Origin: a virus
Taxonomy: Duplodnaviria; Caudoviricetes
DNA length: 64,000 nt
Virus record (IMG/VR): IMGVR_UViG_3300031555_003522
Span: 96,001 to 160,000 of that record
Reading direction: 5' to 3' (one strand)
Of the stretch, positions 7,710 through 45,256 are shown in pieces. How positions within the stretch are numbered: position 1 is the first letter of the stretch; every line of letters begins with the position of its first letter. The notes beneath the pieces are model-generated. The model made no database searches. It was not told the DNA's origin and saw only the letters and a list, made by a program, of their open reading frames with translations. The translations under genes and the position numbers were made by a program.

Positions 7710-8576
7710 ATGAACAACGCACAGTTTTATCCCAACAACGCCTACGCAAATCCTTATGGCGTCAACTACGCTGTCCCCGCTAAGCCCCAGGCGAAGAATG
7801 GCCAGCCTCTGACTCAGGAAGAGATCAATCACCTGAGATCTATGTCTGGTGCTGAAACTCTTGATATCAAGATCAGCACTGATGACGTTCTGATCGCTAA
7901 GTGTACTCACCGTGAGAAGAATGGCACAGATTCCCTGGTTAACCTTGGTGGTGACCGTTGGCGCTGCACGATTTGTGGCCAGGAGTTCAACATGTTCAAT
8001 GGAACCGTCGAAGAAGTCACTAATGCTGTTGGTACCATTATTGATATCCTGCAGACTTCTAAGTCCATCTATCGTGATGCTCCGGATAGCTTGACCGGCC
8101 AGTATTATCAGCTGATTCCTCTGCTGAAGAAGCTGCCCAACGTCTTCCAGGCATCTCTGAACAATTTCTCCAAGTATGAAAATTGGCAGCAGGCTCCCGA
8201 ATTCACTGCTAATGGCTACTATCCCGGCTTTACCGCTATGCATAATCTGTTGACCGGTCAGTTCATGCCCGGCATGGCTCCTGGCTATGGCTATCAGCAG
8301 CCCGCATACGGTTATCAGCAGCCCATGATGCAGCCCATGCAGGGTGGTTATGCACCTAACCCTGTTGTGACTCCTCAGCCCACTGCTGGTTATTATCAGC
8401 AGCCTGTGATGCAGCAGTACGATCCCAGCGGTAATCCTCTGGCTTACGGTGCTCCTGTTGCTCCTGCACCCGTAGCTCCCGCTCCTGGTGCAATTCCCGC
8501 TGCTCCCGTAGCAGCACCTGCAGCTGCTCCCGCTGCTCAGTCTGAGGTTCAGCAGACAGCTGTCTTCAATGTGTAA
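7710..8576 (+). CDS. Zn-ribbon protein with Q/P/Y/A low-complexity tail
   Basis: CTH..CTIC; C-ending-rich codon usage; both promoter motifs upstream (7557, 7633); terminator 8612-8651. Confidence 0.85.
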   Translation: MNNAQFYPNNAYANPYGVNYAVPAKPQAKNGQPLTQEEINHLRSMSGAETLDIKISTDDVLIAKCTHREKNGTDSLVNLGGDRWRCTICGQEFNMFNGTVEEVTNAVGTIIDILQTSKSIYRDAPDSLTGQYYQLIPLLKKLPNVFQASLNNFSKYENWQQAPEFTANGYYPGFTAMHNLLTGQFMPGMAPGYGYQQPAYGYQQPMMQPMQGGYAPNPVVTPQPTAGYYQQPVMQQYDPSGNPLAYGAPVAPAPVAPAPGAIPAAPVAAPAAAPAAQSEVQQTAVFNV

Positions 8577-23740: not shown

Positions 23741-24976
23741 ATGTCTATTTATGATATTACATCTGAAGATAGAGTGATTTTAAAAGAAGCTGCAATGAAA
23801 TTAGATGCAGATACTGATGCTATAAAAAGAAAAATATATCCTAAGGTTGAAGAGGTATTACAATCTTCTTCTATAGTAAATGCTTATAAACGAGTAGTAA
23901 ATGATTTTGTATCATATAGGTATGAAGAGCTATACGATTCTCTTCCGTGTGCTAGAATGGTGTGTTCTGATGCAGAAATGGATAAAACCTTTACTGCTCT
24001 TAAAATAGATAAAACTTTTGTAAAGAAAGTTATTATTGATGAGACCTATTATGGAAAGATAGAGCACTTTTCTCCTCTTGCTGCTAAACATGAATTTACT
24101 ATTCTTATGCTAAATATTATTAGATATTTTTCTAATAAGAAGATGAATAAGGAAGCTGAATTGGCTCTTATACATCTTGCATTTTCTGGTAAATTTTATC
24201 CTTCTCTTCATTATAGATCTTATCCAATAGTACCAGCAAGATATGTAATGGAGTATGTTGTAAATAATAGACTTAGTAAAAAATTCGATCTTGCTACATA
24301 TGGTAGTGTAATTGGAGCGGTTAAGTCTGTTAGTAAAACTTGGTTAGAAAGATATCAAGATAAATTTAAATCTTTTACCGATGATGATATTAAATATCTG
24401 ATTGATCAGTTATATTCTAGAATCGGATCTTTTATAAAAAATGTAGCTACAGAGTACTACGATGTATATAATAATAAGGATGCTTATTTTGCATACTATT
24501 CTGATTCTACAGATCCTGATGATTATCATATAGCCGATAACGACATGTATAAAATTTCTCGCTATACAGAAAAAGCTGTAAATTATATAAATATTAATGG
24601 TATAGATTATAAGACATGTAAGGTCTGTTCAAATTCTGATATAACTCCAAATGAGTGTAAAGCTGTTATAGAAAGTATTATTTCTACTAAAGAAAATATT
24701 ACTACTATAAAAGAATTAATTTCTCTTATGATAGCTTTATATTTCTCTACCGGAGAAAATGATCTTACCAATATAAATTTCATTACATATACTATTTCTC
24801 CCAAACCTAATGCAAAACAGAAAGAAATAGTTCGAATGAAAGAAATTATTGAAGAATGGTTATGCGAATCTGGTACAGCATATATGAGACGTCGTTCTAG
24901 AGTTGCTACAAGAAATGCTTATGAACGAGCTGTTCGTATGTACTTTGCTCTTACTATTCATAAAGCTAATAGATAA
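23741..24976 (+). CDS. Hypothetical protein (late-type promoter)
   Basis: 411-aa ORF, AAGGAGGT RBS. Confidence 0.85.
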   Translation: MSIYDITSEDRVILKEAAMKLDADTDAIKRKIYPKVEEVLQSSSIVNAYKRVVNDFVSYRYEELYDSLPCARMVCSDAEMDKTFTALKIDKTFVKKVIIDETYYGKIEHFSPLAAKHEFTILMLNIIRYFSNKKMNKEAELALIHLAFSGKFYPSLHYRSYPIVPARYVMEYVVNNRLSKKFDLATYGSVIGAVKSVSKTWLERYQDKFKSFTDDDIKYLIDQLYSRIGSFIKNVATEYYDVYNNKDAYFAYYSDSTDPDDYHIADNDMYKISRYTEKAVNYININGIDYKTCKVCSNSDITPNECKAVIESIISTKENITTIKELISLMIALYFSTGENDLTNINFITYTISPKPNAKQKEIVRMKEIIEEWLCESGTAYMRRRSRVATRNAYERAVRMYFALTIHKANR

Positions 24977-25149
24977 AAGAATAATCCCCATGCCAAATAT
25001 AGGCATGGGGATTATCTTGTGTACAATTGTTATAAAGAAAGAAGAAACAAGACATGGAACTTTTTCTTTTATAAAAAACTGAAGTGGAATGATGAAAAGT
25101 ATTAAAATGGCGAATTTTAAAATACCTTCCACCCTCATCCACCAGCTTT
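24971..25149 (-). ncRNA. Candidate sRNA B (~175 nt), antisense to the RNAP beta translation start
   Basis: Minus-strand AACT-N6-TA at 25160-25149; 5' hairpin domain; segment 25062-25025 complementary to 31101-31132; terminator 25016-24971. Confidence 0.7.
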
Positions 25150-25284
25150 ATTCTAAAGTTCGTTAACTTTTTAATCTTTACATTTTACTTCTTTATTTTC
25201 TTATTTTTTTTTAATTTTTAGTTATAAAAAAATATTTTTCTATATTTAAATATCATAGGTATAATATAATCACTAGATAATTAT

Positions 25285-25377
25285 ATTAAAAACGGGAAAC
25301 AGAATTAAAAACGGGAAACAGAATTAAAAACGGGAAACAGAATTAAAAACGGGAAACAGAATTAAAAACGGGAAACA
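25285..25377 (+). repeat. Tandem 19-bp repeat ATTAAAAACGGGAAACAGA, 4 full copies plus 17 bp
   Basis: Exact copies start at 25285, 25304, 25323, 25342 and 25361; the last runs into a 13-bp inverted repeat (25373-25404). Confidence 0.97.
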
Positions 25378-25439
25378 TGGAAAACTCTAATGTTTTCCAT
25401 GTTTATTTCTAGAATATAAAATATATTTAACTAATAGAT

Positions 25440-26110
25440 AAAAGAATATATAAGAAAATATATCTATTATATATTTTGTAGCATTCACTTCTATATTATT
25501 ACCTTCTCTTTATCAAGAGATAAATAATTTTATTTATAATCCTACAATTTAATATTCAATATTATATTAGTGTATCATCTTTCACGAAACACGGTGGACT
25601 GTCTTTCCAAATGATATAATAATATAACAAACTCCAAGCTCTAGACGATTCTGCATGTCTATACTTACACTCACTTCTTATCTCTTTTTCTTATAAATAA
25701 AATTATTATTTAATTTTAATAAAAATGAAGGTTTGGTCTATAAATATATTATTTATAGATATATTCTATTATAGTATTCTTTGTCATGTATGCTATACCA
25801 ATATGCGCGACATTTTTAAAAAGCCGAAGTAAAAACTATTCAATACTATCTATCTAACTACCTTGGCAAGAGCGAGAGGCAAATAATGCATCTGCCAGAA
25901 AAGAGATATAAACATATTTCATTATCTCTTTTATATTAAACCTTAATAAATTTTATTGGTTTAATATAAATATTAGTATCGAGTATCATCAAAGGCTAAG
26001 AGCTATACTTTTTAGGTAATCGCTTGATTTCGTTTTTTCTAATCTATGCTATATTTCTCTCTATAACATTACCCTCTAGATCTATATAGATCTAGAGGGT
26101 ATTTTCTTCT
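25440..26110 (+). ncRNA. Candidate long structured ncRNA C (~670 nt)
   Basis: AACT-N6-TA at 25429; no ORF of 60 aa or more; several nested stems; terminator 26070-26111. Confidence 0.45.
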
Positions 26111-26169: not shown

Positions 26170-26901
26170 ATGAATGCTCAACGTGAAAAAGCAGAAGCTT
26201 TGATATATAGTGTATTTGATAAATTAGATAGTAAGCAATATAATTCATCTTACTATAAAAATCTATTTTCTAAAATGAGTGATACTCAATTCTTTGAGTT
26301 TTGTAAAAGAAGATTACCTTTTAGGTTTCATACTAAACCTTTTATAGTTGAACCTAAGATGTTTGATATAGAAGAAGCATTAAAAGTATTAGGCGTTCCT
26401 CTTCTTGAAAAAGTAGCTTTACCTTATCTTTATATAAATAAAGATGGAGAACCTGTTTGGTCTAAAGAAGCTATGGTAATATATATTCATATTAAGAAGA
26501 TGAAACAGTTTATTACTAAAAAGAACTCTACACCTACATCTATAAGTAATCGAGATATGAAAACTGGTCATCTTGTATCCTTTGATAAAGGTGGAAAGAC
26601 CAGCGACAGGGAAATGGAATCTCTTGCTGTTATGGGTCTTGATCATACTATGGATGAATTCTCTACTTGGAGAGCAGATTATATGGATGCTAAAGCAACA
26701 GCATACCAGACAATCAGTACTTTAGGTACGATATCAAAATCCGATATTCCGATTGATCCTATGGATTCCATATCTAAAAATACATTAAACGTATATATGA
26801 CAGCATCATTAATTAATTCTAATATGCTTAATCAAGATTATATGCTTCCTAAAACTATAGCAGATAGACATGCTAAAGTTGAAAGAGAAACTGAAAATTA
26901 A
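26170..26901 (+). CDS. RNA polymerase beta, extreme C-terminal fragment (probably virion RNAP)
   Basis: YIHIKKMKQFITKKNS..RDMKTG..DKGGKTSDREMESL aligns to the beta YxxKLxH..DK..GGQRFGEME region. Confidence 0.75.
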   Translation: MNAQREKAEALIYSVFDKLDSKQYNSSYYKNLFSKMSDTQFFEFCKRRLPFRFHTKPFIVEPKMFDIEEALKVLGVPLLEKVALPYLYINKDGEPVWSKEAMVIYIHIKKMKQFITKKNSTPTSISNRDMKTGHLVSFDKGGKTSDREMESLAVMGLDHTMDEFSTWRADYMDAKATAYQTISTLGTISKSDIPIDPMDSISKNTLNVYMTASLINSNMLNQDYMLPKTIADRHAKVERETEN

Positions 26902-31041: not shown

Positions 31042-31125
31042 TAAAATCTAGATTGAGAATATATTATAGATCTGATGAGAATCATACTCTCATCAGATCT
31101 AATTATTCAGAAGGAGAAACTTGAT

Positions 31126-33333
31126 ATGGCTTCTATGGATTTAATGAATCAGATCCGCCGAGTTAGTGTTCAGAAAGAAGATCATATGCTCGGTAAGGGT
31201 CTTCAAATGCCATTTGCGGCATCAAACTCCGGTAGTAGAAAACTGATGTTTGGAACACAGCTTGAACACAGACTTCCTCTTTTAAATCCGGAGGTTCCGT
31301 TTATTCAAACTGGTTACGAAATGGAGTTCGGTAAATACTCCTCTTCTTATATTACCGCCAAAGAAGATATGACTGTTGTGGGAATTGTTTCAAAATTCTC
31401 TTGGAAGCCTCAGCATCACTATTATATCTTCTGTATTGGAAATGAGACCAAAACTCTGTATATGTTTGAACGTAGAACGTATAAGCATATCACAGAAAAC
31501 TATGGATACCTTTTCAACAATAATGTTATGGATAGCATGACTATTGGGCAGAAGGTATCTAAAGAACAAGTCATTCAGAGCAGTACATCATTTGACGAAT
31601 ATGGAAATAGAATGGATGGCTGCAATCTTCTCACTCTATATACTGCCTGTGAAGAGACTATGGAAGATGCTATCGTTATATCTGAAAGTGCTTCCAAAAA
31701 ATTAGCTTCTCCTCTTGTTAAGAAAGTGAATATTGTTATTAATGATAACGATATTCCGCTTAATTTGTATGGTACTGCTGATTTCTACAAAGCATTCCCT
31801 GATATTGGAGAGGAAAGTGTTCATAGTACTCTTTGCGGTCTTCGGAGAGAAAAGAAAGAAGAATGTTTGTTCTCTCAGTCTTATGCAAGATTAAGAGAAC
31901 TTACTATTTCTGATGAAAAATATACAGTATCTGGTAGAGTTGTAGACATTAATGTCTATTGTAACTCACCCGATAGACTTGGTGAATATGAATATAATTC
32001 TCAGCTTAAGAAATATTATGATGAGAATCTCAGATTCAGCCAGGAAGTTATTAATGTACTCCATCCATATCTCGATCAGGGATATGCTCCCGAATACGAG
32101 TTACAAAGATTGATATCTATTTGTAATGGAGCACTTAATGGTAAACAATATTTTTCTGAAAGAGTATTCTCGAATATTGTATTAGAAGTTACTCTTATTG
32201 AAGAAATTCCTGTTCTTCGTGGTGATAAACTGTCTAATAGATATGGTGGTAAAGGCATTACCTCCAGAATCAAACCAGATAAGTTTATGCCTAAAACAAA
32301 AGATGGACAAACTGTAGATGTTATTCTCAATATGTGTGGTGTTTATGGACGTGAAAATGCTGGTCAGTTGTTTGAGATTACAGTAAGTTATGTATGTATC
32401 AAACTGCTTGAGTTTATTCAGACAAATACTCTAGACGTCGGAGAATGTATAAATCTATATTTAACGCTTTTGAAAATAGTGGCGCCATCTATGGTTTCTT
32501 ATATGGAAAATATGTTCTCATCTATGGATGAAGATGAGTGTATTAGATATATTGGAAATATTTTGTCTAGCGAGAAATCTATTTATCTTGTCATTGAACC
32601 TATGACAGAAAATATGACTATCGATAAAGTAGCAGAACTTTATGAAGCATTTAGCTGGATAAATCAGGAAAAGATGTTGATGCCTATCGTAGACTCTATG
32701 GGAGAAGTAAATTATATTCCGTCTAGACGTCCTATGGTTTATGGATATCAATATATCTATAGATTGAAACAGTATGCAGAGGAAAAGTTCTCCGTTACCT
32801 CACTATCTGCAACCAATATTAGAAATGAGAATAGTAAATCAAAGAGTTCTAATAACTATAAAGCTCTATATTCCCGCACTCCTATTAGATTCGGCGACAT
32901 GGAAACGGGAAATTTAATCCATCTTGGAGCTGAGCTAGTTGTTCAGATGCTTATGCTTTATTCTACATCTCCTAATGCAAGACGTCTTACAGCAGAAATG
33001 CTTACAGGAGATCCTTTCAATATTGATGTAAAACTCGATGATAATTCTACAAATAGAAATGTAGAAATCCTTAATGTGTATCTGAAGACAATGGGTCTAA
33101 AGATTACATTTAAGAAGATTCCCAAAGAAATTAATCATCCTATTCTTATTCAACCAATCACCTTTACCGATCCTAAAGAACACTATGGATCACCTATCAT
33201 ATTCCAGCATCCTGATGAGAAATTCTCTATAGAAGCTGAAGTAGAACGTTTGGTTAATGAGGAAAATGCACCCAAGCATCCTATAGAAATCATTCCCATT
33301 GATTTCCTTAGTGATCTTGAGCCATTTGAATAA
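31126..33333 (+). CDS. rpoB: RNA polymerase beta, C-terminal half (probably non-virion RNAP)
   Basis: SRKLMF, TGYE, MEDAIVISES, GDKLSNRYGGKG, VILN..R.N.GQ, YRLKQ, RFGDME; AAGGAG RBS before ATG 31126. Confidence 0.93.
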   Translation: MASMDLMNQIRRVSVQKEDHMLGKGLQMPFAASNSGSRKLMFGTQLEHRLPLLNPEVPFIQTGYEMEFGKYSSSYITAKEDMTVVGIVSKFSWKPQHHYYIFCIGNETKTLYMFERRTYKHITENYGYLFNNNVMDSMTIGQKVSKEQVIQSSTSFDEYGNRMDGCNLLTLYTACEETMEDAIVISESASKKLASPLVKKVNIVINDNDIPLNLYGTADFYKAFPDIGEESVHSTLCGLRREKKEECLFSQSYARLRELTISDEKYTVSGRVVDINVYCNSPDRLGEYEYNSQLKKYYDENLRFSQEVINVLHPYLDQGYAPEYELQRLISICNGALNGKQYFSERVFSNIVLEVTLIEEIPVLRGDKLSNRYGGKGITSRIKPDKFMPKTKDGQTVDVILNMCGVYGRENAGQLFEITVSYVCIKLLEFIQTNTLDVGECINLYLTLLKIVAPSMVSYMENMFSSMDEDECIRYIGNILSSEKSIYLVIEPMTENMTIDKVAELYEAFSWINQEKMLMPIVDSMGEVNYIPSRRPMVYGYQYIYRLKQYAEEKFSVTSLSATNIRNENSKSKSSNNYKALYSRTPIRFGDMETGNLIHLGAELVVQMLMLYSTSPNARRLTAEMLTGDPFNIDVKLDDNSTNRNVEILNVYLKTMGLKITFKKIPKEINHPILIQPITFTDPKEHYGSPIIFQHPDEKFSIEAEVERLVNEENAPKHPIEIIPIDFLSDLEPFE

Positions 33334-45155: not shown

Positions 45156-45256
45156 AATCCTTAAAGGATTAGAAATCGCTCATAACGACTTTTTGATCTG
45201 CCCTGTGTATTTGAAAATATAGCCACGCTTCTGCCGGAGCGTGGCTATATTCTTTT
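45156..45256 (+). ncRNA. Candidate sRNA E (~100 nt), antisense to the translation start of gene 35852
   Basis: AACA-N6-TA at 45145; 5' hairpin 45155-45171; linker 45178-45214 complementary to 35826-35857; terminator 45216-45256. Confidence 0.78.

Follow-up and report, generated by a model that had tools for sequence, protein, structure and literature searches.

A predicted late small RNA of an AR9-like jumbo phage is complementary to the start of a gene for its own late RNA polymerase

Introduction

Could an RNA made by the late RNA polymerase of a jumbo phage limit the synthesis of a subunit of that same polymerase? In jumbo phages with two RNA polymerases, gene timing has been attributed to promoter type alone (PMC5312081), and a 2026 review names the non-coding RNAs of these phages only as possible regulators (PMC13282480). 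A first-pass annotation of the locus studied here had proposed that a minus-strand RNA pairs with the start of the gene for the beta subunit of the late (non-virion) enzyme, nvRNAP.

The window analysed is a stretch of 64,000 nucleotides, positions 96,001 to 160,000 of IMG/VR record IMGVR_UViG_3300031555_003522 (207,861 bp), and coordinates refer to it unless marked as genome positions. The phage is an uncultured AR9-like gut jumbo phage, and its relatives also come, by their record names, from gut metagenomes. Because of its strong SD sequences and its kinship with AR9, the host is presumably a member of the Bacillota. A tblastn search of the whole genome (G000) with the first exon of AR9 gave no clear nvRNAP beta'-N gene and a gp226-like match at genome 54780-55037 was weak (E 1e-4); the record may be incomplete or the genes split.

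Results

A late transcription unit in an ORF-free gap

A 1.2-kb gap separates a virion-protein gene from a piece of the virion RNAP, and the locus lies at its left end (Table 1). The virion-protein gene was also considered as a sigma-like subunit, which was ruled out: it has no PDB match and is homologous to AR9 gp052.

Table 1. Features of the sRNA locus and of its proposed target (window coordinates)
Feature	Position	Strand	Basis
Virion-protein homolog (AR9 BI022_gp052 / phiR1-37 gp205), convergent gene	23741..24976	+	homology
Predicted small non-coding RNA of late type, about 175-179 nt, consisting of 5' hairpin, pyrimidine linker and terminator	24971..25149	-	fold; layout in relatives; no conserved ORF
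Intrinsic terminator (stem 25016-24980, U-tail on minus strand), directly behind the stop of the convergent gene	24971..25016	-	stem; compensatory pairs
26-nt seed (anti-SD and anti-AUG)	25034..25059	-	identical in L018, L019 and L061; 21/26 against the seed of distant L006
5' hairpin domain; 5' strand conserved, 3' partner strand variable, length phage-dependent	25075..25149	-	individual folding of every homolog
First 13 nt of the RNA, best-conserved transcribed stretch across the clade	25137..25149	-	alignment
Late (nvRNAP-type) promoter AACT-N6-TA, predicted start 25149	25149..25160	-	AR9 consensus; motif enrichment; near-invariance in 10 aligned relatives
Iteron-like array of five 19-bp direct repeats, lying upstream of the sRNA promoter	25285..25379	.	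array in most relatives, unit differing in each
Virion RNAP beta-type subunit piece, far border of the gap	26170..26901	+	homology
Promoter motif of early (virion-RNAP) type, 31059-31067, with the predicted beta-C mRNA start (31074) and its 5' hairpin (31074-31094)	31059..31094	+	AR9 early consensus; close relatives
Predicted target site: SD, spacer and AUG of nvRNAP beta-C	31110..31129	+	complementarity
nvRNAP beta subunit, C-terminal part (beta-C), AR9 gp089 homolog, 735 aa	31126..33333	+	homology

Re-examination confirmed the sequences and positions of both the sRNA block and the beta-C start. The promoter recognized earlier at 25160-25149 matches the AR9 late consensus, AACA-N6-TA/G (PMC5312081), except for a T at position 4. 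Upstream of the genes of the window phage, this AACT variant was observed 42 times and AACA 41 times, compared with 12.4 and 7.8 expected from coding DNA. The unit thus carries the motif AAC[A/T]-N6-T[A/G] and would presumably be read by the phage's own late enzyme. The framing of the block by a 5' hairpin and a terminator also held up. Folding energy is -59.5 kcal/mol (z -8.1) for the minus strand and -46.3 kcal/mol (z -4.9) for the plus strand, and across homologs it is the minus strand that folds better in 13 of 16 units. With a predicted promoter and a terminator of its own inside an ORF-free gap, the unit has the layout of a trans-acting base-pairing sRNA. It has no Rfam match at the gathering score (the best, VrrA, reaches 28.7 bits against a cut-off of 50, and C4 is not matched).

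Neither strand holds an ORF at this locus that is conserved across homologs. A minus-strand ORF of 92 codons (24860-25138) was rejected as a gene, being reduced to 4 codons in L061 and L019. Cis-antisense action was likewise rejected, given that the RNA lies in a gap 6 kb from its proposed target and pairs with it only partially.

Synteny and covariation in related phages had been suggested as a check; synteny was found, and covariation in the terminator. The late promoter, hairpin, linker and terminator recur on the minus strand behind the same virion gene in 13 other variants (L003, L016, L018, L019, L021, L023, L025, L029, L031, L033, L035, L061 and L066). Across an alignment of 10 relatives, the promoter and the first 13 nt hardly vary, and seven terminator pairs show compensatory changes among four sister sequences. 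The 5' hairpin rests on single-sequence folds; RNAalifold gave an alternative 5' pairing for the sister alignment because of indels, and covariation from that 5' region was not counted. Two alternative partners are available to the conserved 5' stretch at 25107-25144 (minus strand), namely a conserved loop and the far side of the hairpin, which may amount to a folding switch in the sister clade.

The seed is kept at 26 of 26 positions in L018, L019 and L061; at fourfold-degenerate sites of the neighbouring gene, identity is 47% in L018 and 57% in L061. The weak hairpin covering it in the window phage costs about 5.6 kcal/mol to open and is not predicted in L016 or L018. Other lineages have replaced the seed, and L003 has almost no linker and no seed. 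A scan for the promoter-5' motif gave no match in genome contigs and added only L066 from viral sequences, six further matches being unrelated. Among fragments, L001 and L002 do not contain the RNA locus and L066 does not contain beta-C. Taken on sequence grounds, a minus-strand RNA gene at 25149-24971 is very probably real.

That the resemblance to the beta-C start is instead sense-to-sense, with the block representing a copied leader or the beginning of a very small or decayed plus-strand ORF and any minus-strand RNA being irrelevant, seems hardly credible to us. An ATG does lie within the block in the sister clade and the plus strand folds too (z -4.9), but the ORF behind that ATG runs for 6, 18 or >30 codons in four sister phages and is absent in L016, its SD-like core reads GAAG, and both promoter and U-tail face the minus strand.

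Other units of this kind were seen. L013 (10606-11085) has three tandem minus-strand units, each with a late promoter, a 5' hairpin and a pyrimidine linker but with different seeds, forming an sRNA array in which two of the three have a clear terminator. ORF-free units running from a late promoter to a terminator also lie at 45156-45255 (+) and 25845-26107 (+) of the window and at genome 92757-92857 (+) and 41720-41888 (-); two of these four contain an ACCUCC anti-SD motif.

The neighbouring repeat array

A repeat array comes next after the sRNA unit in most of the 13 variants, with a differing unit. The array followed by a hairpin spans 25285-25404 in the window and occupies the same place in L003 (9270-9420), L016, L021, L023, L025, L029, L031, L035 and L061. 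Across the clade, repeat unit and copy number are unrelated in almost every phage, and many contigs end there. The array is a candidate replication origin; the cumulative GC skew of the window phage has no turning point at it.

The promoter might accordingly fire away from the iterons to open, prime or time an origin, the linker having no pairing role. The fixed position beside the array would fit such a transcript, as would the fact that conservation is highest in the promoter and first 13 nt, which L003 retains while dropping the seed. A 26-nt invariant seed is unnecessary for that role, however, the skew has no turning point at the array, and the origin function is itself putative. We consider this explanation of the linker decidedly improbable, although an origin role and a pairing role of the sRNA are not mutually exclusive.

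Complementarity to the beta-C ribosome-binding site

The target gene had been taken for the beta subunit of the late enzyme, and this assignment proved correct: its product is closest to the AR9/PBS1 non-virion RNAP beta C-terminal subunit (31% identity; AR9 nvRNAP chain 7s00_C, E 1e-82). Because the AR9 early motif stands at 31059-31067, the mRNA is predicted to start at 31074. The hairpin at its 5' end, at 31074-31094 and in homologs, covaries among relatives and is probably a 5' stabiliser.

On the plus strand, 25038-25048 and 25051-25057 mirror 31110-31120 and 31123-31129, the ATG of beta-C being at 31126. The three differences between them become G-U pairs for a minus-strand RNA. Of the 11 + 7 + 3 bp claimed for this pairing, the 11 + 7 bp over SD and AUG stand, separated by a 2-nt mismatch; the last 3 bp require a 2-nt bulge and contribute little. 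A further AATT.TT likeness upstream, also part of the earlier claim, is not a conserved feature in the sister phages and is probably due to chance. Where an SD would read GGAG, the linker reads GAAG, a change that G-U pairing tolerates and the ribosome does not.

Five scoring schemes were used in all, none of them IntaRNA itself, and the rank of beta-C among the 190 starts of the phage depends on the method. It came second by plain duplex energy, first when opening costs were included, first by local 22-nt duplex (-23.3 kcal/mol versus -20.9 for the next start) and eighth when a 7-bp seed was required and mRNAs were truncated at their early start (opening 8.0 + 5.6 kcal/mol). With shuffled linkers, the best duplex among the 190 starts averaged -17.5 +/- 1.8 kcal/mol and 0 of 60 reached -23.3; the linker therefore appears built as an anti-RBS element, a result that does not by itself bear on specificity. 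None of 117 other spacers of GGAGA-class SD-AUG starts reached the observed energy, for a pair that was chosen post hoc. The nvRNAP beta'-C start (genome 168482) ranks 4-8 of 190, and a rival target is a 116-aa gene at genome 177032 with 14 contiguous bp and a long-window energy better than that of beta-C.

The proposed target in independent genomes

The pairing had been predicted to be conserved in G-U-compatible form. This is true of part of the clade: complementarity to the target is present in the window phage, L061 and L023, and is not strong in eight other lineages. In the sister phage L061, which is not independent of the window phage, the seed is unchanged and the beta-C spacer has changed in such a way that the 2-nt mismatch is now paired, giving 19 bp with one bulge (-23.9); this spacer was matched by 0 of 117 substitutes and is shared by L059 and L060. 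L023, with 68% identity in the neighbouring protein, has a different seed, which pairs over 19 contiguous bp with the leader of that phage's own beta-C gene, its specificity lying upstream of the SD (0 of 311 swaps match). In these three phages beta-C outscores all 357 background starts, and cross pairs between the window phage and L023 fail (z -1.3 and +0.2 versus -4.5 and -3.0 for the cognate pairs). Of nine syntenic genes, beta-C is the sole one with a combined p below 0.1, namely 0.0017 without the window phage and 0.024 outside the sister clade, the latter driven by L023.

The remaining lineages mark the limits of this target. No strong beta-C match was found in L016, L003, L021, L025, L029, L031, L033 or L035 (p 0.09-0.83). 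Permuting cognate and non-cognate labels outside the sister clade gave no significance (p 0.13), and with long-window scoring the Fisher p was 0.063 and the permutation p 0.13-0.33. Beta-C is thus a plausible target, partly confirmed by independent genomes and not universal.

The RNA of G003, a near-whole genome, pairs with beta-C over 16 bp, yet beta-C ranks 14-56 of 178 because many leaders share the motif. Such a pattern would be expected of a broad anti-RBS RNA that, with a linker resembling the 3' end of 16S rRNA, dampens a whole set of early mRNAs of the common AGGAGAA leader class at once, beta-C coming out on top partly by luck. A UUCUCC/UUCUUC-type motif is present in almost every homolog, many starts lie within 2-4 kcal/mol of one another, and in G003 several leaders outscore beta-C and genes with early promoters pair better (p 0.002-0.005). 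AGGAGA leaders are commoner behind early promoters (p 0.04 and 0.08). The early enrichment is not robust in the window phage (p 0.007 or 0.19 depending on the scoring scheme), and beta-C-specific complementarity at the level of the spacer and upstream in the window phage, L061 and L023 speaks against this reading. Broad action with beta-C on top partly by luck is, in our judgement, unlikely but deserves real weight.

In a much more distant relative, L006, the same gap contains a unit on the opposite strand (8181-8285, +) comprising a late promoter, a seed-like stretch and a terminator. The L006/G008 seed agrees with that of the window at 21 of 26 positions, a value reached by no other 2-kb tile of G008 and by none of 300 shuffles. 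The G008 RNA places nvRNAP beta-N (139234) first of 168 starts, by a margin of 0.9 kcal/mol, and beta-C at 67-92 of 168. Separately, the beta-C start in this lineage is duplicated about 118 bp apart and the gene is split by intron-like inserts (L006 18690-20720; G008 145376-147849). One insert holds a 418-aa ORF that, we presume, recalls IS200/605 TnpB.

These observations also bear on another idea: that the expression cassette is fixed while its seed can be exchanged, that the main targets are other phage genes or host mRNAs (of defence systems, for example), and that the match to beta-C is incidental. Seeds differ strongly between lineages, L013 has its three tandem units, G008 retains the seed at 21/26 positions despite lacking a beta-C match, the sister clade has a good alternative target in gene 177032, and the L016 RNA pairs best with a neighbouring gene (p 0.006). 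Against this, two lineages converge on beta-C, no homolog of 177032 was found in G003 or G006, and, of the orthologs that the window phage shares with G008, only beta-N ranks high in both genomes, and that weakly. We therefore regard an incidental beta-C match as improbable.

Discussion

The reading we favour is that of a late anti-RBS sRNA with beta-C as its likely target in the window phage, acting as delayed negative feedback on polymerase synthesis, and we give it an even chance. nvRNAP would start at 25149 on the minus strand and stop at the terminator, as motifs and conservation suggest, and the RNA would be protected by its 5' hairpin and by the terminator hairpin at its 3' end. The U/C-rich linker would then base-pair with phage mRNAs across their SD and AUG and block 30S binding, its best partner in the window phage and sister clade being the early mRNA of nvRNAP beta-C. 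Weaker sites on other AGGAGAA-type leaders, often early and including that of nvRNAP beta'-C, may add a broader damping. Because synthesis of the sRNA would require nvRNAP, production of the polymerase would be capped with a delay, once late transcription runs. From the features of the locus we infer its expression, pairing in vivo and repression of beta-C. The original proposal that a late-RNAP transcript limits its own subunit is hence retained in part: a syntenic, terminated ncRNA gene with a late promoter is supported, but repression of beta-C is not supported as a general rule, with L003 seedless and a permutation p of 0.13. Beta-C would not be the target everywhere because the seed is retuned between lineages.

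Phage sRNAs that pair near the RBS of phage mRNAs and block translation are known from the c4 RNA of P1/P7 and the sar RNA of P22 (PMC12197685). The RNA described here is similarly phage-encoded and predicted to pair at the RBS of a phage mRNA. The c4 and sar RNAs, however, belong to temperate phages, act on antirepressor mRNA and depend on host RNAP, whereas the present RNA comes from an AR9-like jumbo phage and is preceded by a late promoter of phage type; it differs from c4 in having no Rfam C4 match and in its proposed target, the phage's own polymerase, 6 kb away.

In AR9, the closest studied relative, an abundant late start at 75478 (minus strand; "g090 antisense", 3757 reads, Table S3) was measured and given no function by the authors (PMC5312081). 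In our analysis of NC_031039.1 (locus L069), this RNA has an AACA-N6-TA promoter and begins with an anti-SD stretch, for which 8 bp are possible with the SD of g089 (beta-C), followed by a strong hairpin. It thus resembles the window RNA in its late promoter, hairpin and anti-SD against the beta-C SD; it differs in its locus just after g089/g090, in lacking sequence likeness, in the placement of the anti-SD at the 5' end and in matching only a generic SD core.

Trans-acting sRNAs of Bacillota with C/U-rich seeds, such as RsaE/RoxS, combine a hairpin, a single-stranded anti-SD seed and a terminator and have several targets; they are host genes with conserved seeds, in contrast to the RNA studied here, whose seed changes between phage lineages. 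Small RNAs also occur in phiKZ and 201phi2-1, jumbo phages that likewise have their own RNA polymerases; some are conserved by position, the conserved one is derived from a 5'-UTR upstream of a tail gene, no target is known and none has been reported to act against RNAP (PMC11512511, PMC8244752). No phage sRNA directed against the phage's own RNAP was found in the literature that we searched, the coverage of which is incomplete.

The RNA and target named here form a pair that is testable by reporter in Bacillus subtilis, and the natural compensating pairs of the window phage, L061 and L023 provide ready specificity controls. More tentatively, and with doubt outweighing confidence, AR9-like gut jumbo phages may share an RNA feedback on the late polymerase, in which the seed of the cassette would be retuned to nvRNAP subunits, with beta-C targeted by the window phage, L061 and L023, beta-N by G008, and beta'-C serving as an additional site. 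If true, this would be, in the literature searched, the first case of a viral multisubunit RNA polymerase regulating its own synthesis post-transcriptionally. One nvRNAP subunit of phiKZ reaches its maximum at 20 min and declines thereafter (PMC10612078). A late RNA that blocks an nvRNAP mRNA would offer a mechanism for such a polymerase shut-off.
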